DNA of 64,000 bases from an uncultured Acidobacteriaceae bacterium (GTDB taxonomy: Bacteria > Acidobacteriota > Terriglobia > Terriglobales > Acidobacteriaceae): positions 1,404,353 through 1,468,352 of the forward strand of contig CAVYEO010000002.1 of the NCBI GenBank assembly GCA_963767705.1, given 5' to 3'. The notes under the pieces are model-generated. The model was given only the letters and a program-made list of their open reading frames with translations. It was not told the DNA's origin and did no database searches. A program made the translations under genes and the position numbers. Of the stretch, positions 29,526 to 63,321 are shown piece by piece. Each line of letters begins with the position of its first letter. Position 1 is the stretch's first letter.

Positions 29526-29601
<76 letters not shown>

Positions 29602-32836: not shown

Positions 32837-32842
32837 GAGTAG

Positions 32843-41550: not shown

Positions 41551-41663
41551 GCGTTTCACCCTTGGTTCTTCCGGTTCCGGGGTTCGTTTCCTGGCTGGGA
41601 CGATGGCTCACCTCCTCAAGAGGTGAGCTTATCTATATATGAGTAAGGTGGCCAGCCGGCCGG

Positions 41664-41954
41664 TCAGGCCGGCGGCCCCTGGTAGTGGCGGGTGGTGACG
41701 GCGATCGAGACGATGTCCTCCTCCGAGTTCTCGAGCACGGCGGCGATGGCGCGGAGCTGGGCCGGGTCCTCCGGGACCCAGCCGCTCTCGAGGGCATCCC
41801 ACTGGGACAGCTCCATGCCGGCCAGCCGGGCGGCGGCTTCGGCGGTGAGGTTGAGATTGCCGCGGCGGCGCTCGACATAGAAGGCCAGGAGCCGGGAGAA
41901 GTGGAAGTGGGGAGGCGAGGGGGGCAGATGGGGCATATCGATATGTGTACTCAT
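41664..41954 (-). CDS. XRE/Cro-like HTH protein, copy 2
   Basis: 96 aa, with one residue difference from copy 1. Confidence 0.55.
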   Translation of the reverse strand: MSTHIDMPHLPPSPPHFHFSRLLAFYVERRRGNLNLTAEAAARLAGMELSQWDALESGWVPEDPAQLRAIAAVLENSEEDIVSIAVTTRHYQGPPA

Positions 41955-42026
41955 CTACTCATTATAGTTGAGAGCTTCCGGCCGCCCAAGACCAAAATCG
42001 CCCCCCTTGCACAAAAACGTGATGAG

Positions 42027-42706: not shown

Positions 42707-43351
42707 CTGACGCACTTCAGCGCTGCCCTCCTGGCCGAATCCGATCTCTGCCCTCAGCCAGGACCGGGCTGACCGCTGGCTCTTACTCACCTCCAGTCAC
42801 GCTGTTTTCCTGGCAGCCATTTCCGTCCTCTTCCAGGCCCATCTCCCGCCCGTTCAGGAGATGGAAAAACCGGCCCCGGAAAGGAGGAACTTCTGTAACT
42901 GCATCTGTGGCACGGGGTTTTGCTCTGGAGATTGCACGCGTTTACGAGGGGACATTGATTTCCCTACGTAGCACTGGCACTTAGTGCACAGAACGGGCTG
43001 GAAATCGCCGCTCTAGTATAGGATCTTCCCCCCCAACACGATGAAAAAGGACAGGAATTGATCGGTTCTCCATCTACACTGCGCTCGAGCCGTACTCATA
43101 TACTTCTGAACCTGGCCCTCTTCGAGACCGTTCCTGGACCCGCTCGCCCCAGGGAAGCCGGGGCATCTGGACTGGAACAAGCCCCCTCCGCCCACCGCCC
43201 CGCCCCACTAGACAAAGCTCTAATCGAGTGGCTTTAAAGCCGCAACAATCGGCAACATGGATTGAGACGTGTGGAATCGAGAGTTCGGCCTCGGATGCAG
43301 ATTCGGGCAGGTCGTTCCTAGCTTCGCTCTAATAGAGCAAGGCCCAGGAGG

Positions 43352-46300
43352 TCAGAACAGGTTATAGCAACTCTCGACCACGCACTGGCCGAGACGCCGA
43401 TAGCTTTCAAACTGGCTTTCCGTAAAGAACTGATTGAGGGTCTTGTCGTGAGGAAATTGCGCATGCTGTAACCAATAGTTCTGAATATCGCCGGGAAGAT
43501 TCGGCAGATCGCCGGGATTCGACCCGCTCCCTGGCGCGCCTGGCGGCGCGCCGACAAGGGATGCTTTAATGTAGGTGATGCGACCGCAACAGCCATCAGG
43601 CGTTTCCGGGTACTTGATAGTTCCCTGGATAGCGTGCGCCGAGCTGAAGCGCGTTTTCGCAACCAATCGCAGTTCGGAAAGGTTCAGGTTGATCTCGACC
43701 CCGAAATCGATCCGGCACTTGCGAATGGCCATGCCGATGCCTTCAAAGAGATAGGTCTCGTCCTGCTCGGCGTCGCAGACGACGACGTTGTAACAGCGCC
43801 GGCGAATCAATTCGTATAGACCCATGTTGTCGAAGTGTCCGCCGTCGGTGAGATAAACATATTTATAACTGTCGTCTGTGCTTCCGATGAGCTCCGAGAA
43901 GAGCGCCAGACCCGTGGGCGAGCCCAAACCGCCTTTCCCGCTTGGCGCATCGCCGAGTTTCCGTCCGGCGCAGGACAGCTTGCGCGGGTTGGGTAGCCAG
44001 CAGCCGAGGCGAGCGTTGAACATGGTCAGCAGGAAGGCCGTTGCCGGTTTCGTGTGGTAGCCCCAGTTGGGACTGAGGGCGGCACCGGAGATTGCCATAG
44101 CCGTTGAGATATTCAGACCCCCTTCGGGGGCAGCATAGAGCTCGGTAGGCACGAAGCCGTTGAACTGCGTGCCCGGCTCGCCCTCCGTCCAGCTTGCCGT
44201 GTATCCCGTATAGAGCGGGGTGAAGGCGAAGGAGGCGCCTTTGCGCTCCTGATAGGCGAGGTCCTTGCCCGTAGTCAGGTTCAGGGTGGCGCAGAAGATG
44301 GGGAAGGGGCCGGGATAGTCCTGATCCGGGAGTAAGGCACCGCAGTTGGAGTCCGCGCGTGTCGCGGTCGTCGAAGCCAGTCAGTGGATTAGGGTCACGG
44401 CTGCGGTTCGAAGCGCCAAGATAGCAGCGCGTCAGCCGGTTGCGGTAGAAGGGGAACATGGAGAAGGCGTTCGCGTTGAGCCGCCAACCGAAGGTCAGCG
44501 ATGCCAAAAACGAAACCAGAAGCCCGCTGCCGAGCCGCCATGGGTGGGAGCCGCTGCCGAGCCAGAGCTCGATCGTCCAGGAGAGCAGCACGAGCAGGCC
44601 GAGGATGTAGACGTAAGGGCCGACGGTGGCAAGCAGCTCGGCAGACAGGGCGGTCTTGGTCTTTGGAGCATCGGCTGCCGCTCCATCGGTCTTGGCGCTT
44701 TTACCGCTGGCAACGGAGGCGGCGGTTGTCGCGGCCCAGGCCAGCACGGTCGACCACTTTAAGGCGGAGCTGTAGATGACACTGGTTAAGAAATCAGGCG
44801 AGAGCAGGGCGATCGAAAAAAGGCCGAGCCATGCCAGCGCGATGAGGAGGGTGCTGGCCTGCAGCCGTCCGAGCAACTCGCGTATCCAGTCGTCAAACTG
44901 CCGCCCTACCGCGCCGACGAGGAGCCCGACCGTTAAAAACGGTATGGACGCGAGCAGGGGAACGCCGAAGATCAACTCTATGCCGGGAACCGGGCAGTGC
45001 ATCCAGCGGGCTCCCCAGTGCTCCAGGGTGGCGACACGGATAAGCACGGCAAGGAGGGCAAAGACCGCCGCTCCCCCAAGGGAGACCAGCGAACACAGAG
45101 CAGAAAAACCCAACCGGGCCCAAAGTCCATACCGCGGTAGAGCCCTGCCGCCGAGAGCCACACCCATGCTCAAAAGGAATAGTGCTCCAGCAACGCCGGC
45201 GTATTGCCATGCTGATGGATCGGCGCTGACAAAAGCGTAGCTCAGTGGAATGGCGGGAAACATGAGCAGGGCAAGGATGAAGCTGGTATCCCAAGGATGA
45301 CTTGATTTGCGCCGCGTCTTCCTCTCACAGTCGAGAACATCTGCCAGCGGACCAGGGCAAGGTGGGATGGTGCCGGGCGCAGTGGACGCTCGGACGGCCT
45401 GGTCGCATGCCCGGATATAGGAGTGCTCATCACTCAAGAGAAGAGCCAGATAAAAAGCGCCAACCAGAAAGAGGATCAGCCCGGAAACTATCCAGAACAG
45501 CGATTTCTGGTTCTTCTGTAGGACTCTTGCATTGCACGGCGCCTGCTGAGGCTGGCTTAGCGCGTTGCATAAATTGAGCCGGGGACATCCGCTCAGATCC
45601 AAACGTTTCCCGGCCCAGGATGCCACGGAATATCGCAGAGTGCAGCCATAGTGGTGTGAGAAGGTTTCCGCTGCGATGCCAGAGGCTGCGCCCTTCGCGA
45701 GTCCCGAAATGGCGAATGTGTACTGGCCTTGGACACCGGGGCCCGTGGCGGCGAAATGACCGGCGATGCTGGCCGGCTGCGTGGTCTCCCGTTTGGTGCA
45801 GGCGCTCCCGGGGTCGGCCCATGGCACAGAGAAGAGCCAGGGAATGAGCAGCATGAAGAGGAGCGCGGAGATGAGCACGATCTGGTTCAACAGCGTGTTT
45901 CTTATCCAGATGGCGATAGCGGTCCAGGTATCGAGAGTGAAGAGGCCCTTTTCCGGCGTTAGGTAATTTGAGTAGCTGCGCAGCCAGCGTATCTCGAAAG
46001 GGGCGCGTTGCGGCGGAAGGGAACGTTGGATGGAGGCGTCGTATTTCGGATCATCTTCTGGACTTTTCCGATTGGGAATGCAATTCGTCGAGGCCGGGAT
46101 GGGCGACATGGCGGCTTGCACCTCCTTCAACGCTTCCTTGCACGCAAAGCAAGAGTTGCGTCCCAACCTTTGTCGCGCTGTTTCGCGTTTCAGCCAGGCG
46201 ACCAGCCAGGCGTGGATGTAGCCTCCGCCGGAAACGGAAGACAGATAATCGTAGTCGTTCAGCTTCTGCTTAGAAGCGAGACCTTGCAGAACGCCGAGAT

Positions 46301-46733
46301 TGAAAGTGGCACTTCGGATGCCGCCGCCGGACAGGCATAGGCCGGAGAGCTTTTCCAGCCGAGCCCAGTCGTATACCGTCGCGGGTCGCTTTGGGTCAGT
46401 TAAATCCGGTGGCCACGGTTTGCAGTCTCCTCCATGGACGGCACGCACTTTGCATAATGTCGGAGCTTCCTGCTCCAGCAGCCATTTACTCGGCACATAG
46501 TCGACAAGATTAGCAAGCGGCTGCTGAAGCCCCGGGTTGCTGCGCATGCAATCTAAAATGTCCTTCTCCGCACAAGGGGCCAGCGATGGCAGCGTCGTTT
46601 GCTGAATCGCCCAATCACGTACCGTCCTGAGCTCCGGGACAGCAATCAAGAGCTCCGTGCTGATTGGCTTCCCGATGTCTTTCGCGTAAGCAAGAACACG
46701 TTGCGATAGTTCCTCGAGATAGTCACTTCCCAT
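43352..46733 (-). pseudogene. Patatin-like phospholipase with a large polytopic membrane insertion; one frameshift between about 44,300 and 44,380
   Basis: CLSGGGIRSATFNLGVLQGL (oxyanion GGGxR) and SSVSGGGY (nucleophile elbow) lie in the 988-aa ORF, followed by at least 9 hydrophobic helices. After ...NPLTGFDDRDTRGLQL the homologous path continues in the frame of ORF 43352-44152 (CGALLPDQDYPGPFPIFCATLNLTTGKDLAYQERKGASFAF...LTDGGHFDNMGLYELIRR, the catalytic Asp motif). The start is placed at ATG 46733 (AGGAGA 8 nt upstream). Confidence 0.75.
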
Positions 46734-46806
46734 TGGTTGTTCTCCTGGCATGGGTTTGTCGTATCTGACCCTGGCAGTACCGTTTGTTCCTGCCCCGCGT
46801 CCTGCG

Positions 46807-49800
46807 TCAATGTGCCGTGTGGAGCACATCCGCGAATTGAAGTCCGTTGCACTTCGCAGCTACAGCGTCGTTGTTCGGCACGGAGGAGGATTCGTTCGTC
46901 GCGAAGCACTGGATCTTGCGGTGGTGAAACTCCCGGATGGGCTGGTCCGCTAAGTCGCGAAGTGATTGCGCGGTTCGCGCCTTGCAGTAATGCTGTTCGT
47001 ACACGTTTTGCGTTCCTCGCGAGTACGCCCAGTGACAGTCCTGCCCCTCGCTATCGAGTACCCTGTCCGAGACGAAGCGGATGCCGAAAGCTAGGTCCGC
47101 CGCGGTCGGTACTGCGATAGCGCTTACGATGGCCGAGCTGCTGTGGTACTCTTTCGCGGCGTGCAGTGGTATCCCTGCGAGCGTTCCGATGTAAGGCAGC
47201 TCGACGAACGGCGGCAGCAACGGCAGCAAAGGCCGTCCCTTAGCCAGCACCGCGGAAAACGAAGATAGATCGAAGAGCACGATGGAATCTACCCGGACAT
47301 GCGTGTTCACGCTGTGTGTCGCCACGCGCGAAAGGTCAGGATCGCTCGTGTTCTGATTGGCGCTGGACCAGTATTTAGGGTCAGCCGATTCCGCAGCAGT
47401 AAGCCTTACGTCCATCTCAGCACCGGACGCGCCCACGGTGCTGCGCGGAGTTACCGAGAGGTTTAGATTTCGGCCAATGTTGATTTTCGTCGTCTGATAA
47501 GTGGAGAGCCCGGCCAACACTGCTTGCGCTTCCGCGGACAGACCGCCCGTAGCGACGGCCGCTGCAGTGGAGGCCGCCTTGGAAGCGGTGGCAGTCCCGC
47601 CGCCACCGCTGGAGCCGGAAGAGCCGCCCTGACCGGATTTTCCACCGCCATTGCCGGAACCGCCACCTAACGCACCGGCCACGGCGCCAGCCACCGTGCT
47701 CCAGTCAGGCGCCGAGCTCGCATCGAGGAAGCTCTGCGATGTAGTGTCAACCTCAGCGGTGTGCCCGGAAACGGTGCGCACCGAAACAATGCCATCATTC
47801 AGGAAGCTGTCTTTGTTCGCGATGCCCTTGGCTGTAAGGGCAGTGCGGAGTTTGGCTCGCAGGTAGCTTTGGTACGCAGTGAGATCGTGGTTGAAGGCGT
47901 CGATCAAGGGATTAAGAGCGCTGTTGAAGGCGTCGGCGCTCTGTGTGAGGTCGTAGGGCGTGAACTCATGCGGGTACTGTTGGCTCATTTTGTAATGAAA
48001 GAGGAAATCGGCGATTGCTCGGCGCGCCAGTCCCAGTTCGCTCGGCTGTGTATCTTGCGGGCCTGTGCGGTGCAGAAGCAAAGTAGCTGCGCGCCGGAAG
48101 CACTCAAGGTAAAGGTCAGGTGACGGATGTCTGCCGGAATCATTTTGGGCGTAGATCTCCTGCCGTACAATTCCTATCTGGTCAGCCGTTTCGCAGTCGC
48201 GGACTCTATCGAGCCGCAAGTCCGGATCATTCACCTGGCCCACCAATTGAAGCGCTCTGGCCGTCTGTCCGGTTAGGTCTTGTTCTTGAGCTAGCCCGGT
48301 CTTAATCTTTTTGTCCGCGCGGCGCAGAGTTATACGGGCCTGCCTGTTCTGCGCCCAGACCTGCATGCCTTCCTGAATCCGCGGAGGGCCGCACTGGGTG
48401 CCGGCAGCGTCCTCGACGTCCTCTATTCGGTTGATTGCGCAGTTGGTGACCCGCGCTGGATTTTCCGCAGCGATGATAGCGAGCAGCAGATTTGTGAGCC
48501 GCGGCTGCAAAGGTTGAAAGAGGGTGGTGTACCCCAGGCAGTACTCCCCGACAAGGCATACGTTCTGTCCGGGAGCGTCATACGCTCTCACGCTTTGCGC
48601 CATGAAAATCTTCTGTCGGAGCCCGGCGAAGGGCTTGCTTGACTCGAACGGATCGCGGTAATCGGCATTGTCGAGCACCGTCATTCCGGTGAGATACTTG
48701 TAGAAAGGTGGATCGAAATAACCTTGGTCCGCCATCGCCAGCTTGAGATACTCCCAGCCGGTCAGAACCCCCCGCTGCAGCCCCGTGTTATGGTCGTTCA
48801 CCGTCTGCCGGATAACCTGGTTGGCGGCCCCGAACTGATCTGCTCGTTTGGTCGAATTCTGGAGCACCCAACCGTTGATGATCATCTCCGGGCGCGGCAG
48901 GTCGAGGAGCGCCAGGACACGCTTCTGCTCACTGATTGCAGCATCGTCGCCCAGGTTTGCGCCTTCTGCGAAAACTATCAAGTCGCCTGCTGCTGACGTG
49001 GAAGCCTGGACTTGTGCCGAGGATTGGCCGTCAGCACCCGAGCCCTTGCCGGCGCCGGTCTTCTTCGCACTGCTGTTCTCGGAGGAAGACCCCCGCCCTT
49101 CGAAGAACTGCTAGCTCCTTTGCTCTTGGTCTTACTGGTTGAGTCTCCGCCCGGGCTGGAGCCTTCGCTTTGGTTTGCGTTCTGGCTCCCGCCTGCGCCC
49201 GCGCTCGTACTCGGCGCAGCTTGCTTGTCCGTTCCTGTTGCAGCTCCCGGCGACGCCGAGTCAGTCTGGTCATCCTGACCTGCGGAAGGCGCAGGTGCGG
49301 CTGTAGCGTTAACTAAGCTGGCGGCAGTGGGTGCGTCCAGCGAGTACACGCGCGCTACCGGGGACTCTGAACCGGGACTCCAAGCTAGTCGGTGCACTGC
49401 GTCGAGAAAAGCTTGAAGATCTGTACACGAAGGCGAGCCAGATACAGTAATTCGGATTCTGCCTCCGCCCGCATTCTGGGCCGCGAACCATGGTGAGCCC
49501 AAGGCTGTGATGCTTGCCGCTGGATCACCGAGCGAGCGTGCATGAGGAACCTCGAAATCGAACGATGCCGTAGACTTTGCCGTGAGCACGAGCGGGAGCC
49601 AAATCTGAATGAGGCGGTTGAGAACGGTATTGTCTGTACTTCCTGTCTTTCCCGCGGCGCGTGTCAACACCAAGGTATTAGTATCCAGCGCCGTTAAGGT
49701 GAACGGGGCGGCCTTTCCTAACACGGTAGCGACATCTATTGCAGAGGCGGCGGATGCACGAGACTCGAATACAGGATTCGGCGGTGGTGGGGGGCCTGCA

Positions 49801-50189
49801 CGCACGGGGCATGAGGACAGAGCCAGAACCGGAGGCGAGCACGGCTGTCCTTGGGGCGACGGAAATAAGCATAACGCCTTGTTGCCAAGTGGAATTTCGC
49901 ATAGCCAGTGGTCAAGGTGACACACGGCTACTGGTACGCTGGCAGCTAACTTGGTCGAAGGCGGCTGGAGCGAGGCGCCGTTCGCGTTGCGGCTTGCGCT
50001 CCCGGTCACCTTCTTGTTTGCCGCTGGTGCAGTGCCGCTCCTAGGTTTTTTGTTTGGCGCCGGAGTAGCTGGGCTAGTGGTTGCAAGACCCGAGTAACCG
50101 AGCATGGCAGAACACAGCGAGCACGCAAGGATTCCACCGATTAAGGAACCAAGAAGAGAGCGCACGGATCTGCACAGGAGCAGCGCCAT
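46807..50189 (-). pseudogene. Large exported, possibly lipidated, secretin-like protein; two ORFs (403 and 724 aa) separated by a 1-nt frameshift in a Ser/Gly-rich linker
   Basis: There is an N-terminal signal peptide with a possible lipobox (GGILAC). The 724-aa frame is open upstream to 49110 and reads SSSENSSAKKTGAGKGSGADGQSSAQVQASTSAAGDLIVFAEG, continuing the low-complexity text of the 403-aa ORF. A C5 run at 49090-49094 sits at the switch point. The C-terminal blocks LNLSVTPRSTVGASGAEMDVRLTAAES, THVRVDSIVLF, VELPYIGTLAGIPL and AIVSAIAVPTA resemble the secretin C-domain. The family call is tentative. Confidence 0.45.
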
Positions 50190-51629: not shown

Positions 51630-54600
51630 TTAGTCGACTCGATGCTCCAAGACATTCCGCTCGCGCAGGGCTTCATAAAGCTGTGCAGGTCCCAGCAAGA
51701 CTTCTTTAAGACCACTACGGACATGTTCTGACTCCAGCGCCTGCTTGCTCAGAGAGGATAGCGCGCGAAGAGCGTCCATGATGGCGTTGATGAGTTCGTG
51801 ATTCAGATCGGGCGAGTTGGCGAACTGCTCCTTGGTGTTGTTCGCCGCCTGCTGCCTCAACGTGTCCGACTCCAGCAGCTTGCCCTTGATCACGTCGTTC
51901 ACGTAGACGAGCTTGTCCTCCTCGGTCAGTCTCGCCTTCGAAGAGGTCATTGACCTTGGCGATGATCTCGCCAGCCGCGCCTTTTCCTTCTCCTGCACGG
52001 AGCCGGAGCCTGTGTCGGTCAGCGGCTTCAGCGTCGGTGCGTCGCCTTCGCCAAGAGGCAATGCTGCGGTTCCCGCGTTCATGCAGGATGTGGTGCGTCA
52101 GCACCACCTTCGAGAGATCGACTCCGTCCCGCTCGCGGCCAAACTCCAACAGCGGCAGCAGTCGCTTGTAGAAGATAGCCCGCTTCTCGAGCCCCGTGTT
52201 CCCGTAGTCGAAGATCTGCGACAGGAACGTGTAGGCGTGACCGAAGCTGCCCATGTCGCGCTTGAACAGCATCAGCGCCTCCATCTCAGCGTGAGCGTCT
52301 TCGGCTGCGCCGTCGTCGCCTGCGGACTTGCGCAGCCTTCCAACGTTCACTGAGCTGCTTTGAATTGGCGCACCAGCCGATCCGCCACCGGCTCCAGAGC
52401 GCGCACCAGATCGCCCTGCTTCGACTGCGGGTTCAGCTCCACCGTCACAACGCGGTCCACCTCGAACTCGTCGTAGTGTCCGGCTGCATCCAGCTTGGCA
52501 CGCAGGTTGTAGACCAGGTTCGGATCGGTCACGTCCTCCAGCGTTGCCGTCGTCGTAGTAGGTCTTGAACGCCTCCAGGACCTCTTCGGCATCATTCACG
52601 AAGTCCAGCACAAATGTCGTGTCCTTAATGCCGAAGCGGCCCGAGTAGGAGCGGTTCAAGCGCGATAGCGTCTGTACTGCCTGGATACCCGCCGAGCCGT
52701 TTGTCCACATACATCCCGCACAGCAGCGGCTGATCGAAGCCGGTCTGGAACTTGTTCGCTACCAGCAGAATCTGGTATTCGTCCGTCTTGAAGGCCTCGC
52801 GGATGTCCCGCCCGCGCAGATTCGGGTTCAGCACTTGACTGTTCTCCGTGAATGGGTCTGCGCCGGACTCCTTATCGTTTACCTCACCGGAGAACGCGAC
52901 CAGCGCGCTCAAACGATAGCCGCGCGACTGGATGTACTTCTCGATGGCCAGCTGCCAGCGCACTGCCTCTAGCCGGCTACCGACCACGACCATCGCCTTT
53001 GCGTGACCGTTCAAGCAGCGGTTGGACATTCTCACGGTAGTGCTCCACCACGACCTGCACCTTCTGCGAGATGTTGTACGGGTGCAGCCGCACCCAGCGC
53101 ATGATCCCCTTCATCGCCGTCGTGCGTTCGACCTCTGTTTCGTCGTACTCCTTGCCATCATGGGCGAGCTTGAAGGCGAGCTTGTAGGTCGTGTAGTTCT
53201 GCAGCACGTCGAGGATGAAACCCTCCTCGATCGCTTGCCGCATGGAGTACACATGGAACGGCTCAGGCAGGTTCGTCGGTCCTGCTGGCTGATCTGGATC
53301 TGGCCTGCGGCCAAACAACTCCAGCGTCTTTGCCTTCGGTGTCGCCGTGAACGCAACATAGGTGATGCCCGTATCGGCGGTGCGAGCCGTCATCTGCGCC
53401 CGCAGCACGTCTTCGAAGCCAACTTCGCCGCCGTCCTCGATCTCCTGCCACTCTTCGGCGCTGAGCACCTGCTTCAGCTTCGCGGCTGCCTCGCCCGTCT
53501 GCGAACTATGCGCCTCGTCGGCGATCACAGCGAAGCGTTTGCCCTCGGTCGCTGCAAGCTCGCGACACCTTTTCCAGGGCGAACGGGAAGGTCTGGATCG
53601 TGCAAACGACGATCTTCTTATCGCCGGAGAGCGCCTCCGCCAGCTCCTTGCTCTTGCTGCCGCTCTCGCCCTTGATGCTGGTCACAACACCCGTCGTGCG
53701 CTCGAAGTCGAAGATGGCGTCCTGCAACTGCTGGTCGATCACGTTGCGGTCGCACACCACGAGCACGGAGTCGAACACCTTCTTGTGCTCGGCATCATGC
53801 AGGTCTGCAAAGAAATGCGCCGTCCATGCAATCGAGTTCGTCTTGCCCGAGCCTGCCGAATGCTGGATCAGATATTTGCCGCCCGCACCTTCCGCCTTTA
53901 CGGCGGCCAACAGCTTCCGCGTCGCGTCGAGCTGGTGGTACCGCGGGAACAAATAGCGCGTCAGCTTCTTCTTGTCGTCCTTTTCCGTGACAAGGTAGCG
54001 GCCCAGGATGTCCAGCAAGCTCTCGCGCTCCCAAACCTCCTCCCACAGATAGCTGGTTCGATGGCCTGCCGGCGATGGTGGATTGCCGGCCCCGCCGTTG
54101 TCGCCCTTGTTGAAGGGCAAGAAGCGAGTGGCCGGTCCCGCCAGCCTGGTCGTCATCTGAGCTTCGGAGTTGCTGACGGCGAAGTGAACCAGTGCACCAC
54201 CGGGAAAGCTCAACAGAGGCTCGGCCTTTTGGCCTTTCGGCTGCGGATGCCGGTCGAACCGATACTGATCTACGGCGTCCTTCACGTTTTGGGTGAAGTC
54301 GGTCTTCAATTCCACCGTGGCGACGGGCAGGCCATTCAGGAAGAGCACGAGATCAAGGCAGTTCTCATTGCCCTCGGAGTAGCGCACCTGGCGGACGACG
54401 CGCAAGCGGTTGGCCGCGTATCGGGTCGTGATCGCCGCATTGATGCCGGAGGCAGGACGAAACTGCGCCAGGGCAATCTTGCTCTTCACTGGGAAGAGCT
54501 CGATGCCGTTCCGCAGTACGTCTAGTGTTCCGCGCGTATCCAGATTCTGGCGAAGTTGGTCGAGTAGACGGGAGTCAGCTCCAAGGCCGTGTCCTTTGGC

Positions 54601-54774
54601 TAATGACTGCCATGCTTCCGGTTGCGACTCCTGCACCCACGCAATCACATCCTCAGGGAACAAAGCCCGCACCCGGTCGTACTGGGCGGAAACAGCCTCC
54701 TCATATACCCAGCCATGCTGCCCGAGGTACTCGGCAATCTCGACCTCGAAGTGAATCTCTTTGTGCAGGCTCAT
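51630..54774 (-). pseudogene. hsdR: Type I restriction enzyme R subunit (HsdR), disrupted by about eight frame changes
   Basis: The homologous path jumps between ORFs:
- 53506-54774 (nuclease and motif I, QHSAGSGKTNSIAW)
- 52977-53528 (IADEAHSSQTG, the DEAH box)
- 52625-53035 (NGHAKAMVVVGSR...QILLVANKFQTGFDQP)
- 51715-52710 (AGIQAVQTLSRLNR...)
- 52347-52595
- back to the 51715 frame
- then alternating with 51630-52082 (C-terminal helical domain). Confidence 0.85.
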
Positions 54775-56087
54775 GCAGCCTCTTTCGGGGTGAAGTTGCG
54801 CACATCGATCTTACCGGTGACGGCAGAGGAGATGAGGGCGCTGCGACGTTCTTGGAGTAATCTAGTCCCGTCTTCGGCCATCTCTATTAAGCGGTCAATA
54901 GCCCCAGTGACTTGATCTAGGTATTCAACGATGGCTTCCTGTTCATCGGGTGTTGGAATGATGAGTAGCATCGAACCAAGTTCTTGCGCGTTGAGATGGG
55001 GCTGGGCAGCTCGCGTCCTTTCAAGATCGATTTGGTTCTCTTTGAGATACGAACTTAGCAGTGCATATTGAACAAAGTATGGGTTCACATCCACACATCT
55101 TAAGATCATGTCGAACCCGGCGATGCACGGGCCATATCCTTTACGGATAATGGCCGAGTCACCCGTATATGCGCCACTCCGGACAACGATTATGTCGCCC
55201 GGCTCAAGCCAAAAGGCTCTGTCCCCTGGAATGTCGCTGGGATCAATCAAGACGAGATCATCCTCGTACAGCTTCCCAGCATGCACGTTTGTCGCCCTTA
55301 TAAGTGGAGTGCCTGAGTCTCTATAGACTGGAGGCTCACCGATTCCATATCGGATTGACCCTATGCGTTTGACATAGCTAGTAGACCATTCGTAAGGAAA
55401 GTGACCAACTCCGCCAATATTCGAATCCTTTGTCGGGGCATTGGGATCGAGGCCCTTGGTGACTGCGTGCGAGATGACCGCCTGACGCTTCTCCTTCAGC
55501 AACTCGATCAGCCGCCGCTGTTCTTCGATGAGCTCTTCTATTTTCTTTGTTTCATGATCTAAGAAGGACGCAACGTTCCGCTGCTCTTCCATTGGAGGGA
55601 GCGGGAGATCGATGAGTGTGAATTTTTCGTATCTCATGGCTTGTCCATCACGGACTAGGTTGGATGTGGTCTGAAGTGCTTGGATATATAGATCGGACTT
55701 GAAAAGGTAACGGAAAAAACCCGGATATACAGAGTCCACTGGAGCGAGCATCACATACGCCGAACTAATGCAACCCCGAATGCCGCTCCATTCAAGGCCT
55801 CCTTGAAATGAGCGCATACTGATGACAAAGTCATCAGGCTCTACGTGCTTGAGGATTTCGGCTCCATGGATCACTCGCACAACGGCTCTGCCTTCGGCCT
55901 GCATGAACGCTTCCTGTGTAACGATGCCATGCTTCTGCGAAGCCGTGAGCTGCTCGTCTGAATCACGAACACGCTCCTTGCGCTGAGCAAACAAGCGTCG
56001 GCTCCGGTAGATGTCCCAGTGCTCCGGCACCCCGCCCAGCCAATCCACCCCACTGTCTTTGTATCGCTCGTAGCGCGGTAAGCTCAT
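54771..56087 (-). CDS. hsdS: Type I R-M specificity subunit (HsdS), two target-recognition domains
   Basis: 438 aa with the two conserved helical spacers LIEEQRRLIELLKEKRQAVISHAVTKG and RLIEMAEDGTRLLQERRSALISSAVTGKI separating two variable domains. ATGA overlaps both neighbouring genes. Confidence 0.85.
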   Translation of the reverse strand: MSLPRYERYKDSGVDWLGGVPEHWDIYRSRRLFAQRKERVRDSDEQLTASQKHGIVTQEAFMQAEGRAVVRVIHGAEILKHVEPDDFVISMRSFQGGLEWSGIRGCISSAYVMLAPVDSVYPGFFRYLFKSDLYIQALQTTSNLVRDGQAMRYEKFTLIDLPLPPMEEQRNVASFLDHETKKIEELIEEQRRLIELLKEKRQAVISHAVTKGLDPNAPTKDSNIGGVGHFPYEWSTSYVKRIGSIRYGIGEPPVYRDSGTPLIRATNVHAGKLYEDDLVLIDPSDIPGDRAFWLEPGDIIVVRSGAYTGDSAIIRKGYGPCIAGFDMILRCVDVNPYFVQYALLSSYLKENQIDLERTRAAQPHLNAQELGSMLLIIPTPDEQEAIVEYLDQVTGAIDRLIEMAEDGTRLLQERRSALISSAVTGKIDVRNFTPKEAA

Positions 56088-57127
56088 TCAGCCTCACTTT
56101 CCCGCGTGTCCTGCATGTAAAACTCCTGAAGCTTGGCCTGAAGCAGCTTTTTATCGGGAAGCGCTGTCTGATACTCGGCAATCAGCGCGGGGGACAACGT
56201 GCGGCTCAGAGCATATTCCACCACCTTGTCTTCCTTACTGGCACAGAGCAGCACACCGATGGAGGGCTGTTCGTGCGGCTTACGGACATCGCGGTCCAAC
56301 GCCTCCAGATAGAAGTTCAGCTTACCGAGATGTTCAGGCTCGAATCGCTGCACCTTGAGTTCAAACGCAACCAGGCAGTTGAGGCCACGATGGAAGAAGA
56401 GCAGGTCTAGCGCAAAGTCACGCGTTCCCACCTGCACGGGAAACTCCGAGCCGATGAAGCAGAAATCCCGGCCGAGCTCCAGCAGAAAATCCTTCATCCG
56501 GCTAAGCAATGCCTGGTGAAGGTCATTCTCGGTGTGTTCTCGCGGCAAGCCGAGAAACTCGACGTTATAGGCGTCTCTGAAAACGTCTATCGCCTCTGGG
56601 TGCATTTGTCTCACCGCTGCCGAGACTTTTGGCGGCGACAGCACCACTCGCTCAAACAGAGCTGCGTTGAACTGGCTTTCCAATTGGCGGCTTGACCAGC
56701 GTTCCTTCGCTGCCATGCGGACATAGAACTCGCGCTCTTCCGGCCTCTTGCTCTGGCCGAGAATGATGAGGTGATGGGTCCAGGGTAATTGTCTCAGCAG
56801 TGCCGAGACAATTGCTTCATCCCGGTACGCCTCATAAAATTGCTTCATTCTGAATAGGTTGGGCCGGGAAAAGCCGCGCAGCCCTGGATGCGTATGGGCG
56901 ATGAACCGGGCCAGATTCTCGACCGTCCCAGAGCCCCATTCGGCAGCTTCAATCTTGCGGCTAATGTGCTCGCCCACCTGCCAGTAGAGGTCGATGAGCG
57001 CGGTATTCACGGCGCGGTAGGCGTTTTGCTGAGAAGTTGCGATCAATGCAACGATCTCGGTAAACCCGTCGGGATCGGGCTGCGGCACAGCCAACGCGGA
57101 CTGATGTCGGTTCGGCTTTGTCGTCAT
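56084..57127 (-). CDS. DUF1016/YhcG-like PDDEXK nuclease-fold protein embedded in the R-M operon
   Basis: There is an N-terminal helical region (LIDLYWQVGEHISRKIE...) and a C-terminal D-LLFFHRGLNCLVAFELK block (PD-(D/E)xK pattern). It has 4-nt ATGA overlaps with hsdM and hsdS. Confidence 0.8.
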   Translation of the reverse strand: MTTKPNRHQSALAVPQPDPDGFTEIVALIATSQQNAYRAVNTALIDLYWQVGEHISRKIEAAEWGSGTVENLARFIAHTHPGLRGFSRPNLFRMKQFYEAYRDEAIVSALLRQLPWTHHLIILGQSKRPEEREFYVRMAAKERWSSRQLESQFNAALFERVVLSPPKVSAAVRQMHPEAIDVFRDAYNVEFLGLPREHTENDLHQALLSRMKDFLLELGRDFCFIGSEFPVQVGTRDFALDLLFFHRGLNCLVAFELKVQRFEPEHLGKLNFYLEALDRDVRKPHEQPSIGVLLCASKEDKVVEYALSRTLSPALIAEYQTALPDKKLLQAKLQEFYMQDTRESEAE

Positions 57128-58857
57128 GCGCTCAACCCCGCAATCATGGTCAGAATACGGTCGGTGACGACCTTGAGGTCCGCGTCGATCTCCGCAAGCT
57201 CCCGTGGCGGCTTGAAGACATAGAAGTGCCGGTTGAACGGGATCTCATACCCTACCTTCGTCTTCTCATGATCGATCCAAGCGTCCGGCGCGTGAGGCAG
57301 CACCTCGCGCTCGAAGTAAACCTCCACATCCTCACTGAGCGGAACATTCTCGGTGTCGCGGAGGTCGGCATCGGGCATCGGCTTTCCCTTCATCTTGCCC
57401 TTGGTGCCGAGTACAACCTTGCCCTCAGCGTCGCGCAAGGGCCGCTCAACCGTGATCGTCCGATAGCCAAAGCTCTCGTTCGGGAAGATGAGCGAGATCG
57501 GCACACCGTCGCGCCGAACCTCCTTGAACTCGCAAAAGATGCGTGTGATCTCGTCGATGTGCTCCGGGCTGAGCTCCTTGCGCTTGTCGCCCAGGCTCTT
57601 CCGCATCCGCTGCCAGAAGCTGGAGGCGTCAATCAACTGCAGCTTGCCCTTGCGGTGCGGCAGCTTGTGGTTCGTCACAACCCACAGGTAGGTCGAGATG
57701 CCGGTGTTGTAGAACATCTCCGTGGGTAGCGCGACGATGGCCTCTACGAGGTCGCACTCCAATAGGTACTGCCGGATGTTGCTCTCACCTGAACCGGCCC
57801 CGCCCGTAAACAGCGGCGAACCGTTCTGGACGATGCAGAACCGCGCCCCGCCATCGGCAAGCGGGCGCATCTTTTTGACCAGGTGCAGCATGAAGAGTAG
57901 CGAACCATCCGAGATGCGAGGAAGTCCCGGCCCAAAGCGCCCATTGAAGCCCTGCTCCTCGTACTCCTTGCGGACGGCCTTCTCTGACTGCTTCCATTCG
58001 ACGCCGAACGGCGGATTGGAAAGCATGTAGTCGAACACCTGATGTGCGTGGCCGTCGTTGGCGAGCGTGTCACCTGGCTTGATGTTCGCCACGTCCTGCC
58101 CCTTGATGAGCATGTCGGCTTTGCAGATGGCGTAGGACTCATCATTCAACTCTTGGCCGGATACAGTCAGCCGCGCCTTCGGGTTGTGCTCATGCACCCA
58201 TTCGCCTGCCACAGAGAGCATTCCGCCCGTGCCGGCTGTCGGGTCATAGATCGTCCTGACGACGCCGGGTTTGGAAAGAACATCGTCATCCTCGGCAAAG
58301 ATGAGGTTGACCATGAGGCGAATGACCTCGCGGGGAGTGAAGTGCTCGCCGGCGGTTTCATTGGAGAGTTCCGCAAACTTGCGGATCAGCTCCTCGAAGA
58401 TGGTGCCCATGTCCGCATTGCTGACCTTGTCCGGGTGCAGGTCGATCTTGCTGAACTTTTCGGTGACAAGGTAGAGCAGGTCGGCGTTGGCGAGCCGGTC
58501 GATCTGCGCCTCCAGCTTGAAGCGGGAGAAGATGTCTTTGACGTTGGGCGAAAAGCCATGGAGGTACGCCGCAAGGTTCATGGCGACGTTATCCTGATCG
58601 CCAACGATGGCCTTCAAGTCCATCGGCGAAGTGTTGTAGAAGGTGCTGCCGGACGCCCGAGTCAGATAGTGATTGACGCCGTCCCCAGAGACATCGCGCT
58701 TGGCAGCCTCCTTCAGAACAGCTTGCTTCGTCGGCTCCAGGACACAGTCCATCCGGCGCAGAACTGTAAACGGCAGAATCACTTGGCCGTACTCATGGGG
58801 CTTGTACTTGCCACGCAGCAAGTCCGCCACTGACCAGATGAAAGAGGAAAGATTCAT
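57124..58857 (-). CDS. hsdM: Type I R-M N6-adenine DNA methyltransferase subunit (HsdM)
   Basis: The N-terminal HsdM_N pattern (IWSVADLLRG...EYGQVILPFTVLRRMD), the AdoMet motif IYDPTAGTGGML and the catalytic LSNPPFG are present. Confidence 0.92.
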   Translation of the reverse strand: MNLSSFIWSVADLLRGKYKPHEYGQVILPFTVLRRMDCVLEPTKQAVLKEAAKRDVSGDGVNHYLTRASGSTFYNTSPMDLKAIVGDQDNVAMNLAAYLHGFSPNVKDIFSRFKLEAQIDRLANADLLYLVTEKFSKIDLHPDKVSNADMGTIFEELIRKFAELSNETAGEHFTPREVIRLMVNLIFAEDDDVLSKPGVVRTIYDPTAGTGGMLSVAGEWVHEHNPKARLTVSGQELNDESYAICKADMLIKGQDVANIKPGDTLANDGHAHQVFDYMLSNPPFGVEWKQSEKAVRKEYEEQGFNGRFGPGLPRISDGSLLFMLHLVKKMRPLADGGARFCIVQNGSPLFTGGAGSGESNIRQYLLECDLVEAIVALPTEMFYNTGISTYLWVVTNHKLPHRKGKLQLIDASSFWQRMRKSLGDKRKELSPEHIDEITRIFCEFKEVRRDGVPISLIFPNESFGYRTITVERPLRDAEGKVVLGTKGKMKGKPMPDADLRDTENVPLSEDVEVYFEREVLPHAPDAWIDHEKTKVGYEIPFNRHFYVFKPPRELAEIDADLKVVTDRILTMIAGLSA

Positions 58858-58894: not shown

Positions 58895-59273
58895 GTGCCA
58901 GTCGCACTCGGCCATGCCGTTCGCGGGAATGTCTGGGACGCGTTTCTCCCGCCGCGTGTCCTATTCTCTGGACTGCCAGAGCGCAAGTGGCTGTTCTATA
59001 GCACACGCAAAGATCGTGTATCTACACGACAGCCACCGGAGGGCTGTCTGGCACTCCAACCGGCACACCTTCTGCTCATGGCTGGCGATGGCAGGTGCGT
59101 CGATCAAAGAGATTCAGGAACTCGCGGGACACAAGACGATCACGATGTCTGCCCGGCTTTGGCCGGAGCACTGGTTGTCTGTTATCGATCGAATCGCCTC
59201 AAGCACCCAGCAAGTGATGACTTTGATTGAGCCATCATCAATGGAACGTCAAGACAAGCCGAATTATCGGTAA
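58895..59273 (+). pseudogene. Relic of a second tyrosine integrase (C-terminal about 120 codons, frameshifted, catalytic Tyr codons missing)
   Basis: NRHTFCSWLAMAGASIKEIQELAGHKTITMSAR-LWPEHWLSVID aligns by eye with HTLRHTFVSRLVVAGVHLKQVQELAGHKTIQMTARYAHLAPEHQLSAVE of the 29647 integrase. The YAH codons are absent, and the upstream part is readable only in another frame. Confidence 0.65.
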
Positions 59274-59448
59274 CGATCACCACAACAGATTGTGCTTGCA
59301 CGGCCTTCTCTGATGATGTGTTGCCTCGCTTATTCGGCCTTGGGAACACCTGCCGATTGGAAAGAAGCTGTTGTTACGACTACGATGGCAACGCCTGAAG
59401 TTCTAAACTTTCGTAAGAGCCCAGCCAAAGGGTCAAGTGAGAGGTTGT

Positions 59449-62106
59449 GTGAAAATCTTTCTTAGCTCGACGTTTCTTGATCTCGCTGAGGACCGGCAAG
59501 CCGTCTTAGAGGCACTTCGGCGCAGACGCGCTTCCACGCTTGCGATGGAGGATTTTCTAGCTACGCCCACGACGCCCGCTGAGACAGCATTGGAAAATCT
59601 GCGGAACTCCGACGTGATGATTCTGGTGATCGGGTTCAAGGCTGGCAGCCTGTTGTCCGATGGCACGGGCCGAACTTACACGTGGGCTGAATATGAAGAG
59701 CTGCTGCGTTTAGGAAAAGAAGCGCTGGTTTTCGTCAAAAGGGACCGAGGGTGGTTGAGGAAAAGAGCGGCGTGGAAGAATAAGGAAAAGAGTCCCGAGA
59801 GGAGGAAGGCGCTCAAAGATTTCCTCGACATGGTCGGGAAGAAGTACACGTATGACACCTACGAAACTCCGGATCAACTCGCCTTACACGTAATCCAATC
59901 GCTTGATCGCTGGGAAGCAAAGGGTCGTCCCGGCGCGAGAAAGACGTTTGCCTCGATCGAGGATTACTTCGCCGGCAAGAACCCTGCCGGCCACTTCCAG
60001 TTGCTTGACTTCGGCACGACACTTTTGGGTCGTGACAAGGAGTTCGAGGCACTCGACGAATTTCTTGGTGATGCCGCGAAACGCGTGGCGATTGTCAGTG
60101 GTCGTGGCGGGATCGGAAAGAGCAAGCTGCTTTACGACTGGGCTCGACACCATGAAGCGGATTCTCTGTTTCTCAAAGACCAGCCTTTCTGGCACGAGGA
60201 TTCCGAGAAAGAAATCCCTGTCGATTGCAAGGTATTGATCGTGGATGATGCGCACCGGCTTGAATCGCTCGGAAACGTTCTACAGCTTCTTCGCGATACA
60301 GCCAAGCATCGTTCGCTGAAACTGCTGCTTTCGACTCGTCCCGGCAGCAGTGCGCGGTTGGCTCAATCGCTTTACCAGCATCTGGACTCGGCGCTTATCG
60401 TTCAATTTCCTGAACTGAAGGAGCTCACGCGTGATGAGAGCCGCGCGCTCGCGGAACAGGTGCTCGGGTCTGAGTTTCAGACGTATGCCGCTCACCTTGC
60501 GGAGATCGGCAGCAACAGTCCCTTAGTGATTGTTGCTGGGGGAAGGCTCATCGCAACCCGCCGTATCAACCCTGCGTCGTTGACCGCGTTGGACGAGTTC
60601 CGCGCGGCCATCTTCCATCGCTTGCTGAACGAGATGGATTTGACGGGACCACGCTTCGCGATCAATCCGCCTCGGCCGGTTCTTGAGCTGATAGCAATTT
60701 TCGGGCCTGTCGATGTGGAGCGGCTGGACTTTCAAGAGTCAGCTCGGCAGTTGCTGCAACGGCCGGTGGACGAGATCCTTTCCACCATTGATGCGTTAGC
60801 AGCTACCGGAATCGTCATTCCGCGTCCGAAACCTGTGCGCGTCATTCCCGACGTGCTCTCGGATTGGCTAGTGGAAGACCGCTGCATTGGACCGGGTGGA
60901 CGGACTACCCACTATGCGGATCGGGTCTACGACACGTTTGGGGCACACTCGCTTAAAAGCCTGATGCGAAACCTTGCGGAGCTTGATTGGCGGAAGGGAC
61001 AAGCCGGAGAAACGGGGCTAAACCTTCTGGATACCATCTGGGCCGACATACACACCCGCTTCCGCAATGGGGACGAATATGCGAGGCACAGTATTTTGGG
61101 CGAACTTGAGCCTGCGGCGATATATCAACCGGTTCAGGTGCTGGGACTCATCAGAACGGCGATTGATGCACCAGTGGTCCTGGAAGAAGGGGGAGACGGT
61201 AGCGGCTACCGACTAGGGCAGTCCTACCTCGTGACTGCGTTACCTGGACTGTTGGAAGGAACGGCATACCACCCTGAACATATCCGCGAGTCTGTTGGGC
61301 TTCTCTGGAGACTCGCAAAAGGCGAGCACGACCGGAACAGCACCGGAAGCAGCGCACGGACGGTGTTGAAGCGACTTGCATCCTGGCGGCGTTACACCGA
61401 TGCGGCCTTTAATTTCGCCATGCTCCTCCAAGCAATTCGGCTCATGTCGCGGCCTGACGCCTTCACGGAAGAGTACACGCCATTTGACATCATCCGTCAG
61501 CTTTTGGAAAAGGATGGAGAGTTTACAGAGCGGCAGGACGAAACGACCATGTCGTTCGGGGGCTTTGGCCTCAACTATGCGGCGGTAGGTCCGGTGCGCA
61601 GGAGTGCCCTGGACTACCTCGATTTCGCGCTAGCTGGTGATGGGATTCCCGCGATTCAGTCCATTGCAATCATGGAGAAGCTCCTGCATAACTACCTTAA
61701 CCGTATGGGGCGAGCCTCATCGCCGGAAGAGAAAACCTGGCAAGACGCGGAGCAGGCGCGTTGCATCGACTCGCTCTTAAGCCGTTATGAGGAGCCAGCC
61801 AGCGATGTCCTCAAGGCGAGGATTTTCGACGCCCTGCGGTCGGCGACAGCAATCAGTTGCCCAGACTGGGTTCGAGAGCGTACCTCTGCCGCACTCGAAG
61901 GCCTCGACGTTCCCGACGCGGTCGTGGTCGTTGACGCTATTAGCACGGCGGATCATGAGCTCCCGTTTGTATCAACTGAATTCTCGGAACCACGGTGGGA
62001 GAGCGCGATCACAGATGTGATGGCGAAAGGGCGGTTCAGCCTGGAGCGACTGGTCGAAGGCTCTGGAAATCAAGCTCGCTTCACCTTAGAGAAGACGAAG
62101 GCGTGA
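59449..62106 (+). CDS. STAND-type P-loop NTPase with an N-terminal DUF4062-like (TIR-like fold) domain and a long helical C-terminal region
   Basis: VKIFLSSTFLDLAEDRQAVLEAL...SDVMILVIGFKAG...ALVFVK is the DUF4062 signature. Walker A is GRGGIGKSKL (about 60100-60129) and Walker B is KVLIVDDAH (about 60229-60255). LKLLLSTRP is like the NB-ARC hhhTTR motif. About 580 aa of helical repeats follow. The start is GTG 59449 (GAGG 4 nt upstream) or GTG 59437. Confidence 0.8.
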   Translation: MKIFLSSTFLDLAEDRQAVLEALRRRRASTLAMEDFLATPTTPAETALENLRNSDVMILVIGFKAGSLLSDGTGRTYTWAEYEELLRLGKEALVFVKRDRGWLRKRAAWKNKEKSPERRKALKDFLDMVGKKYTYDTYETPDQLALHVIQSLDRWEAKGRPGARKTFASIEDYFAGKNPAGHFQLLDFGTTLLGRDKEFEALDEFLGDAAKRVAIVSGRGGIGKSKLLYDWARHHEADSLFLKDQPFWHEDSEKEIPVDCKVLIVDDAHRLESLGNVLQLLRDTAKHRSLKLLLSTRPGSSARLAQSLYQHLDSALIVQFPELKELTRDESRALAEQVLGSEFQTYAAHLAEIGSNSPLVIVAGGRLIATRRINPASLTALDEFRAAIFHRLLNEMDLTGPRFAINPPRPVLELIAIFGPVDVERLDFQESARQLLQRPVDEILSTIDALAATGIVIPRPKPVRVIPDVLSDWLVEDRCIGPGGRTTHYADRVYDTFGAHSLKSLMRNLAELDWRKGQAGETGLNLLDTIWADIHTRFRNGDEYARHSILGELEPAAIYQPVQVLGLIRTAIDAPVVLEEGGDGSGYRLGQSYLVTALPGLLEGTAYHPEHIRESVGLLWRLAKGEHDRNSTGSSARTVLKRLASWRRYTDAAFNFAMLLQAIRLMSRPDAFTEEYTPFDIIRQLLEKDGEFTERQDETTMSFGGFGLNYAAVGPVRRSALDYLDFALAGDGIPAIQSIAIMEKLLHNYLNRMGRASSPEEKTWQDAEQARCIDSLLSRYEEPASDVLKARIFDALRSATAISCPDWVRERTSAALEGLDVPDAVVVVDAISTADHELPFVSTEFSEPRWESAITDVMAKGRFSLERLVEGSGNQARFTLEKTKA

Positions 62107-62118
62107 CTTGCCGTCGGA

Positions 62119-63321
62119 GTGGCGACCGGAGGGTTCCGTCGGTTCATGCTCACCTTCGTGGATCGGCCAGACTTCCTGGAGGTGATGGCGGACGACATCA
62201 TTCGCGATGAAGAAATCAAGCATCTGTCCGGTCAACTTGCCTCGGTGCTGAACGCCATACACACAAGCCGACCGGAAGTCTTCCGCCGGCGAGCACTCGC
62301 GGCTATCGACGCAGGCGCCAGCGAAGTGATACACGCTGCCGCGAATAACTTGCGGGTCTTCTCAGGCGCAACCAAGGAAGACATAGCGGTGATTCAGGCT
62401 TACGCCGGATATGCCGATCCAGTAGCGAAGTTGGGAGCTATTTTTGCGATCACATATATGGGCAAGTTCACCGACCTTTTGCCCTCACTCAAAGAAGCTG
62501 TACTGAGCGTCCACACAGAGGGCAACAATCGGGTCGCGGCGGAACTAGCGGATGCGTTCGGTCCTTATGGTGTTCCTTTGACCCATCTGACGCATGGCGA
62601 AGCGGCGGGACTGGTGAAGGAGTTTGCGCTTGTTCGGGACTGGGATTTCGACCAAGGGGCTATACCTCGCTTCCTCAATCATTTCGTCAGACTGTTTCCT
62701 GATGAGATGTTTGAAGTTCTCACAGAGCGCATCGAAAGCAACTCGGCGGCGCGCACAGCCAACCTGCCGGGGTTACGATCTTTCGGACTTGTTCATGGGA
62801 ACGTTTCCTTCAGCAGTGTTCCGGCGGAAAAACGGATCGAGCTCGCAGTAAAAGTGCTTCGCCAAGCCCTCACGCCCGGGGCAGGTGAAGAAGCTTCTGA
62901 TCTCTTCTGGGATGTTGCAGGAATCGACGATAGTGCGTTCGATCTCATCCTACGGGAAGCACCAGGAATTTCAGAGGATTCGCTAAAGCAGCTCGTGGCA
63001 TTGCTCGATAAGGCAGCGCCGCGTCTCGCTTTCAACAAGCTACAGTTCGTAAAAGACCTCTTGAGGTTGTTCCACTGCGCGGCGCGGCAAAAGGTAATCG
63101 ACATTATCGCCTATCAGAGTTATCGGCGCGGAGGCGGGGCTTTTGCCGGTGATCCAAGAGAGATGATGGCAAAGGAGCAGCAGAGTTTTCGAGATGCGGT
63201 AGGCGCGCTGCAGAAGACCCCGAACTGGATGACCTTTTATTGGCGATGCGTGGCTTTCTCTGACCACTCGAGAGGCCCTGGCAGAGCGCAGGGAAATCAG
63301 TTCGCGCGTCGCGAACTTTAG
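62119..63321 (+). CDS. All-helical (HEAT/ARM-like?) hypothetical protein, operon partner of the STAND NTPase
   Basis: 400-aa ORF starting 12 nt after the NTPase stop (GTG 62119; alternative ATG 62146). The composition is helical repeats with no catalytic motif recognised. The last roughly 30 codons look compositionally odd, so the true C-terminus is uncertain. Confidence 0.55.
   Translation: MATGGFRRFMLTFVDRPDFLEVMADDIIRDEEIKHLSGQLASVLNAIHTSRPEVFRRRALAAIDAGASEVIHAAANNLRVFSGATKEDIAVIQAYAGYADPVAKLGAIFAITYMGKFTDLLPSLKEAVLSVHTEGNNRVAAELADAFGPYGVPLTHLTHGEAAGLVKEFALVRDWDFDQGAIPRFLNHFVRLFPDEMFEVLTERIESNSAARTANLPGLRSFGLVHGNVSFSSVPAEKRIELAVKVLRQALTPGAGEEASDLFWDVAGIDDSAFDLILREAPGISEDSLKQLVALLDKAAPRLAFNKLQFVKDLLRLFHCAARQKVIDIIAYQSYRRGGGAFAGDPREMMAKEQQSFRDAVGALQKTPNWMTFYWRCVAFSDHSRGPGRAQGNQFARREL

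Follow-up and report, generated by a model that had tools for sequence, protein, structure and literature searches.

The 3′ part of the window, a 64,000-nt stretch of forward-strand DNA from an uncultured Acidobacteriaceae bacterium (contig CAVYEO010000002.1, positions 1,404,353 to 1,468,352), carries a Type I restriction-modification (R-M) locus, a tyrosine-integrase remnant and two open reading frames (ORFs), ORF1 at 59449(59437)-62106 and ORF2 at 62119-63321, both present in the ORF list of the window. The initial annotation had described the two ORFs as an intact, unassigned defence cassette in which a DUF4062-type STAND NTPase is followed by an obligate helical partner. Alignment with homologues pointed to a different arrangement. 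ORF1 and ORF2 share one reading frame and are separated by a single TGA, and in tblastn residues 1-1258 of a 1271-aa homologue (P0002, from GCA_030012865.1) matched 59449-63222 without a change of frame and with 90.5% identity. A search with ORF1 retrieved more than 100 homologues of ~1270 aa, which begin with MKIFLSS, each cover 100% of ORF1 (885 aa) and continue past its stop site with Cys or Ala. The junction reads FTLEKTKACLAVRVATGGFHRF in the homologues, including KTKACLAVRV/CLAVRVATGG, and FTLEKTKA*LAVGVATGGFRRF at the same point in the window (asterisk, stop); ORF2 was collinear with residues 891-1258 of the 1271-aa homologues. The whole segment is very probably one ancestral gene encoding a NIR/DUF4062 domain, a STAND NTPase and an alpha-solenoid, which was broken by a premature stop and a frameshift (Table 1).

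Table 1. Features of the NIR-STAND gene and of the surrounding island, in window coordinates. L003 is the syntenic locus of a relative; AF2, AlphaFold2.
Feature	Coordinates	Strand	Basis or remarks
Ancestral gene, ~1271 codons, now a pseudogene	59449..63263	+	GTG start 59449; ancestral TGA stop 63261-63263
Upstream non-coding region shared with the syntenic locus; presumed promoter/leader	59266..59448	+	blastn alignment to L003 starts at 59266
NIR/DUF4062 TIR-like NADase effector domain (predicted), ~residues 1-157	59449..59919	+	Pfam, PDB, AF2
P-loop STAND NTPase, ~residues 190-420	60016..60708	+	motifs, profiles, Foldseek
Walker A GRGGIGKS	60100-60123; K224 60118-60120	+	also read GRGGIGKSK
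Walker B D266-D267 (LIVDDAH)	60244-60249	+	
STRP (in LLLSTRP block)	60331-60342	+	
HEAT/ARM-like alpha-solenoid, ~850 residues (~421-1271), presumed sensor	60709..63260	+	AF2; comprises the last part of ORF1 and the whole of ORF2
Premature stop, TGA for TGC (Cys886), dividing "ORF1" from "ORF2"	62104..62106	+	DNA alignment with relatives
Apparent ORF2 GTG "start", the ancestral Val891 codon	62119..62121	+	homologue alignment across the junction
1-nt deletion; last 17 codons shifted	63209..63210 (approx.)	+	relatives read GCGCT[C/G]GCAG
Tyrosine-integrase remnant, residues 277-335 only (59 codons)	59046..59213	+	tblastn of L003 integrase, 86% identity
hsdM, intact	57124-58857		
DUF1016/YhcG nuclease gene, intact, inserted between hsdS and hsdM	56084-57127		
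hsdS, intact	54771-56087		
hsdR pseudogene, at least 5 frame segments	51998-54775	-	comparison with intact L003 orthologue
tRNA-Met	29526-29601		
Tyrosine-integrase gene, frameshifted (two frames), after tRNA-Met	29698-30698		

In this arrangement, "ORF2" is the C-terminal 385 residues of ORF1's own HEAT-like solenoid, and what had appeared as an all-helical partner with no catalytic motif is the C-terminal part of a continuous domain. The AF2 model of P0072, a fragment of the syntenic orthologue, was all-alpha and formed one continuous array (pLDDT 88.2, pTM 0.77), and the premature stop fell inside its helix 477-493, modelled at a pLDDT of ~96. The GTG from which ORF2 seemed to start is not a true initiation site; the sole purine-rich stretch near it (GGA) abuts the GTG with no spacer. 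The 12-nt gap and the apparent co-transcription of two genes therefore arose from one stop codon and mechanical ORF calling. A sigma-70 consensus scan upstream of the gene returned no promoter sites, a result that is uninformative for Acidobacteria.

We found the proposed partner nowhere as a gene of its own: six intact homologues in unrelated contexts were all stand-alone ~1271-aa genes, and nearly all complete copies in an integrity-blind sample of 80 metagenome loci were single ORFs of 1235-1490 aa, with no separate partner gene in either set and hence no co-conservation of such a partner in other genomes. The ORF2 module was rare: among 1.84e9 representatives it occurred in 77 clusters, and all of its long matches were to the C-terminal end of proteins of 1170-1333 aa. 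A conserved partner elsewhere at the loci, such as the divergent upstream genes of ~390-400 aa, was rejected: when the genes directly adjoining the family gene at nine loci were compared with one another by blastp, no neighbour was shared. An operon in which the DUF4062-STAND protein acts with an obligate, separately translated helical adaptor, inhibitor or second sensor would account for two ORFs called mechanically 12 nt apart and for the recurrence in databases of short proteins (372 and 359 aa) with starts close to the junction. However, the shared frame and collinearity with single 1271-aa proteins, the internal Val codon in place of a start with a spaced Shine-Dalgarno sequence, the interruption of a helix within one continuous domain and the frameshift in the C-terminal tail itself make such an operon extremely unlikely. 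The short proteins do not represent a natural split variant either: those of 372, 359, 414, 560 and 584 aa are gene-caller restarts at conserved internal Met codons (Met900 or Met913 for the two recurring lengths) after unrelated upstream frameshifts (L096/L097, at ~600 and 876, with the Cys codon intact) or at contig edges (P0157), and no N-terminal piece of 885-899 aa recurs among the homologues.

Breaks within the 80-locus sample were scattered (at ~145, 190, 209, 275, 580 and 648, with several in L035). A shared break hotspot was considered for the lesion of relative L004, which lies ~5 nt from the window stop, and rejected, as that lesion is a 10-N scaffold gap and an assembly artefact. 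The gap is located at ~6640-6670 of L004 (metagenome-assembled genome (MAG) contig CAXUIF010000007.1; equivalent to window ~62099), is accompanied by a duplicated 9-nt flank, GGCGTGCCT, and causes gene callers to split an otherwise intact 1271-aa ORF into 926 and 359 aa. In the window, a single nonsense codon combined with mechanical ORF calling had mimicked an operon of an effector-NTPase and its partner, a false operon that comparison of homologue lengths reveals immediately. The window copy is also unusable for the cloning proposed in the initial annotation: to clone "the pair" would be to clone a broken gene.

The two frames had been described as intact, and they are not: codon 886 has become a stop, and one nucleotide is missing 17 codons short of the end of the gene. 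All four aligned relatives (L001, L003, L004 and L005) read TGC at Cys886 and GGCGTGCCTT around it, and the window alone reads TGA (GGCGTGACTT), a single C-to-A change. The deletion yields an unrelated out-of-frame tail (QKTPNWMTFYWRCVAF...) reaching 63321, and the ancestral last 17 residues, AEDPELDDLLLAMRGFL*, were recovered in another frame, one that begins at 63180 and ends at the ancestral stop. The window copy, lacking 385 solenoid residues and carrying an altered tail, has most likely lost its function. Its pairwise ratio of non-synonymous to synonymous substitution rates (dN/dS) was 0.12-0.14 (~0.13), compared to 0.11-0.12 between intact copies; the similar values indicated that the window copy had been under purifying selection until recently, and suggest that its inactivation was recent.

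A TGA at a position where most homologues carry Cys is a classic selenoprotein signature, and a TGA read as selenocysteine, or simply read through, would restore a full-length protein. However, of the 55 members, 34 have Cys at column 886, 20 have Ala and one has Val, so that the position is not a conserved redox Cys, and the TGA lies within a solenoid helix. The SECIS (selenocysteine insertion sequence) family search gave no match, the downstream RNA hairpin was no stabler than shuffled sequence (z=-0.23), and TGC, one substitution away from TGA, stands at this site in the closest relatives, the syntenic locus among them. With a second, unrelated lesion further downstream, recoding is hardly conceivable, and it was rejected on account of the lack of a SECIS match, the RNA fold, the composition of the column and the TGC of the relatives. 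The stop is accordingly treated below as a nonsense mutation in a single ancestral gene.

The domain reading of ORF1 in the initial annotation was borne out. PF13271 (DUF4062) scored 58.8 bits over residues 2-83 (cutoff 24.7; E=6e-16) and matched all 39 of the 39 family members searched. The DUF4062 structure of KpSwz was matched at E=4e-6 with the single sequence and at E=5.5e-12 with the family profile, and the N-terminal domain was modelled by AF2 as a five-stranded beta/alpha fold, both consistent with the DUF4062/TIR-like fold that had been anticipated. The putative catalytic residue, Glu81 (codon 59689-59691), stands in a WAE81YEE context, lies opposite the Ala that replaces E97 in the KpSwz E97A construct and was invariant in 55/55 homologues. 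The Walker A (GRGGIGKS), Walker B (LIVDD) and STRP residues of the NTPase were also invariant across homologues. AAA_16, nSTAND_NTPase5 and NACHT matched the window protein weakly; among the family members, AAA_16 matched 37/39 and nSTAND_NTPase5 matched 19/39 (best E 1e-6). Foldseek with residues 1-424 placed the core of the TIR-NLR RPP1 at the top (E=1.3e-9) and also retrieved EfAvs5, Avs4, SAMD9 and plant resistosomes. The remainder of ORF1 was helical in the AF2 model. The best matches of the solenoid, at low TM-scores and E=1e-5 to 1e-4, were karyopherins, CAND1 and Pds5; no Pfam family matched this region in any of the 39 members, and no Avs sensor was found among its top 50 Foldseek matches.

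The DUF4062 domain, also termed NIR, has been shown experimentally to be a TIR-like NADase effector in Swarozyc (10.64898/2026.05.01.722283), in Evangelion (10.64898/2026.06.25.731849) and in a Pseudomonas Avs2, Vulcan and Vesta (10.64898/2026.09.04.749371). It is also present in "other NLR-like proteins" (2026 preprints; 10.64898/2026.09.04.749371), and its catalytic Glu lies in an "E-Y" region, as E97 of KpSwz, E108 of PsAvs2 and E98 of Vulcan (2026 preprints). The description of the locus as unassigned is therefore outdated with respect to NIR-STAND/NLR-like proteins. In PADLOC, no named-system model was matched significantly even by intact homologues. The models of Avs/AVAST types 1-5 gave no match at E<=0.1 with the window ORFs and five intact full-length homologues; the PADLOC matches obtained were weak (PDC-S01, PDC-M01A, PDC-S27 and JetD, E=0.003-0.04), and an NCBIfam search returned sub-threshold noise only.

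In layout the window family resembles NIR-Avs2. Both unite in one polypeptide an NIR/DUF4062 domain at the N-terminus, which holds the catalytic Glu, a STAND NTPase in the centre and a sensor of helical repeats at the C-terminus, and by analogy they would likely share a mode of action (trigger binding, oligomerisation, NAD+ depletion and growth arrest). The window family differs in that its NTPase scores as nSTAND_NTPase5, the sensor is HEAT/ARM-like, the host belongs to the Acidobacteriaceae and the window copy is a pseudogene. Avs sensors have a TPR-like C-terminus that recognises phage terminase or portal. The sensor of the window family is helical, but its best matches were HEAT/ARM solenoids (karyopherin and CAND1) at low TM-scores. 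Compared to bNACHT proteins, the window protein scored only 14.7 bits against the NACHT family (PF05729; cutoff 26.7, E=0.029), and the profile searches of the 39 members did not recover NACHT. Plant RPP1, SeAvs/EcAvs4, EfAvs5 and other TIR-NLR, Avs and bNACHT receptors resemble the family in joining a TIR-like effector to a STAND NTPase and in swapping N-terminal effectors; in contrast to them, the effector here is NIR rather than a canonical TIR, the Pfam NACHT and NB-ARC matches remained below threshold, and the sensor appears to be neither LRR nor TPR.

The other NIR systems were set apart by architecture. Vulcan (10.64898/2026.09.04.749371) shares the NIR effector, the HEAT-type helical sensor and the single-gene format, but it is a direct NIR-HEAT fusion, and the ~230-residue P-loop STAND module of the window family has no counterpart in it as described. 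Swarozyc (KpSwz; Osinski et al., 10.64898/2026.05.01.722283; PDB 10wc, 11cq, 11cv) has a homologous DUF4062 domain, as the family-profile match above indicated, and Swarozyc and Evangelion (Eva01; 10.64898/2026.06.25.731849) both share the catalytic Glu in the "E-Y" motif (AE81Y in the window). However, these two are short proteins, composed of DUF4062 and an auxiliary region (KpSwz chain of 326 aa), and have no NTPase. The similarity between KpSwz and the window protein was confined to residues 2-154, ending at ~151-154, after which the NTPase and the 850-residue solenoid follow. The presence of the STAND module thus separates the window gene from Swarozyc, Evangelion and Vulcan. The window gene belongs, in pseudogenised form, to an unnamed acidobacterial clade of NIR-nSTAND5-HEAT proteins, within the known NIR-STAND/NLR-like kind; the copy in the window is a decaying defence pseudogene of an ordinary type, and we drop the reading of the locus as a new system.

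The reading as a sensor/effector system stood in one part and fell in another. A STAND-type sensor with an N-terminal DUF4062 TIR-like effector, located in a defence or mobile island beside a Type I R-M locus, is supported; the intact two-gene cassette with an obligate partner is refuted. In the intact protein, by analogy with NIR-Avs2 and other STAND defence proteins, the ~850-residue solenoid would bind a phage-derived trigger, and trigger binding would lead to NTPase-driven oligomerisation. The NIR domains clustered in this way, with Glu81 as the putative catalytic residue, would then deplete NAD+, and the depletion would cause growth arrest. The NADase activity, the oligomerisation and the phage trigger are ascribed to the intact family protein on the basis of its domain anatomy and the published work on related systems.

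The island around the gene contained further broken genes. hsdM and hsdS were confirmed as genuine genes of a Type I R-M system, and hsdM is divergent from ORF1/ORF2, as had been noted. hsdR carried seven single-nucleotide insertions relative to the intact L003 orthologue, none of them in homopolymers, compared to no indels inside the genes of the adjacent 2.9 kb (DUF1016 and hsdM). The R-M locus looks like one that has lost restriction and retained the methylase side. The integrase relic next to the NIR-STAND gene, recognised in the initial annotation, is real: L003 has an intact 336-aa Phage_integrase gene at the same position, of which ~760 nt have been lost from the window. Farther upstream, the tRNA-Met and the integrase gene that follows it (29526-30698) probably form the left boundary of an island of ~34 kb; no att-type direct repeats of at least 16 nt were found that link the tRNA-Met end to the right end of the island.

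On the minus strand, a three-gene block at 43352-50189 encodes a patatin-like multi-transmembrane protein, followed by low-complexity proteins of 724 and 403 aa for which no Pfam or PADLOC match was found. The patatin-like gene is frameshifted, with GxSxG in a 988-aa ORF at 43863-46829 and DGGHFDN in an overlapping 266-aa ORF at 43352-44152. Two arms of ~2.5 kb, 97-99% identical, form a large inverted repeat (31593-34091 and 40706-43204) around 6.6 kb of DNA of lower GC content (52-53%), in which IS1595-type transposase fragments lie at 35762-36370 and 39375-39905. The structure resembles a composite transposon or an inversion-prone segment. The breakage of hsdR, both integrases and the patatin-like gene, with hsdM, hsdS and the DUF1016 gene left intact, indicated decay of the island. 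This argues for the loss of the NIR-STAND gene as part of a general decay of the tRNA-Met-associated island.

Several points weigh against our interpretation of the window copy and of its family. The unchanged dN/dS fits a very recent loss and continued selection on the truncated form alike. The 885-aa product still contains the effector, the NTPase and half of the solenoid, and might remain active to some degree or acquire an activity. Recognisable defence genes lie beside only some of the intact homologues, which are accompanied mostly by insertion sequence (IS) elements, integrases and toxin-antitoxin genes; for NIR genes at large, a defence-island figure of 20% against 3.9% has been published (10.64898/2026.09.04.749371). 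For the acidobacterial clade, even a role in defence is a prediction from homology and architecture, as are its NADase activity and its trigger. Finally, both lesions were judged from the assembled sequence and could have originated in sequencing or assembly.

If the last point applied, the gene would be intact in the organism, with the stop and the 1-nt deletion being errors of the record. There is precedent for such errors within the family, as the L004 break in the same gene is clearly an artefact and the breaks in other relatives (L008 and L014) come from long-read-style metagenome contigs. In the window, however, the stop arose by substitution (C to A), the 1-nt deletion lies outside a homopolymer, and the sequence is free of N, with a 29-kb core region that holds many long open frames. 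The indels of the island are also gene-specific, as the comparison of hsdR with its intact neighbours showed, indicating selective decay rather than uniform error. We consider an error of the record improbable.

A truncated but working protein, expressed as the 885-aa product and acting, for example, as a sensor-less NADase or one of altered specificity in a modified system, would agree with the intact effector and NTPase motifs, with the conservation of the upstream region in L003 and with a dN/dS that showed no detectable relaxation. However, the cut falls inside a helix midway through an uninterrupted repeat array, and a truncation of that kind usually destabilises the fold. A similar truncation was kept in no other lineage among the scattered breaks of the 80 metagenome loci, and the surrounding island is itself in decay. 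We regard a functional truncated product as very unlikely and retain the view that the window copy is a pseudogene.

The family derives from Acidobacteriaceae/Terriglobia, including MAGs of Edaphobacter, Terriglobus and Terracidiphilus. Intact copies were flanked by IS elements, integrases, Tn3, toxin-antitoxin genes, Abi_C, DUF1016 and type IV secretion system genes, and the gene adjoins a Type I R-M system in both the window and L003. The NTPase and solenoid also occur with other N-termini: in relatives that share them, NIR is replaced by PNP_UDP_1, Mrr_cat, HNH_2 or an unassigned domain. Such effector swapping is typical of defence STANDs. In L044, L045, L047, L053, L054 and L058, the N-terminal ~300 aa of ORFs of 1415-1446 aa share the conserved pattern GRDA..AI.GYVYQV...WL.L...LELEAGED; this domain has no Pfam match and is a candidate effector domain on the STAND chassis.

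Inactivation was not confined to the window. Of 12 complete close-family metagenome copies, four were broken, in addition to the window copy and the syntenic L003 copy (8818-12631), which was broken by a 2-nt deletion. Broken copies were seen at differing positions in independent lineages (L003, L018, L019, L020, L035, L096/L097, L008 and L014). Such frequent breakage may have a biological cause, a fitness cost of carrying the gene, or may be an artefact of assembling low-coverage or long-read metagenomes. We propose only tentatively, as a possibility that we think more doubtful than not, that the acidobacterial NIR-nSTAND5 NTPase-HEAT-like solenoid family (~1271 aa) may form a distinct, unnamed single-gene STAND anti-phage lineage, whose trigger may be unlike the terminase or portal of Avs and whose costly activity may lead to frequent independent inactivation.

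The intact family extends the recently described NIR/DUF4062 NADase-STAND immune proteins by an acidobacterial branch with a HEAT solenoid. The swapping of effectors (NIR, PNP, Mrr and HNH), as in Avs-type systems, makes intact members such as P0002 reasonable candidates for a new sensor specificity. The remaining interest thus lies in the sensor specificity of the intact family and, possibly, in a high rate of independent inactivation (4/12).

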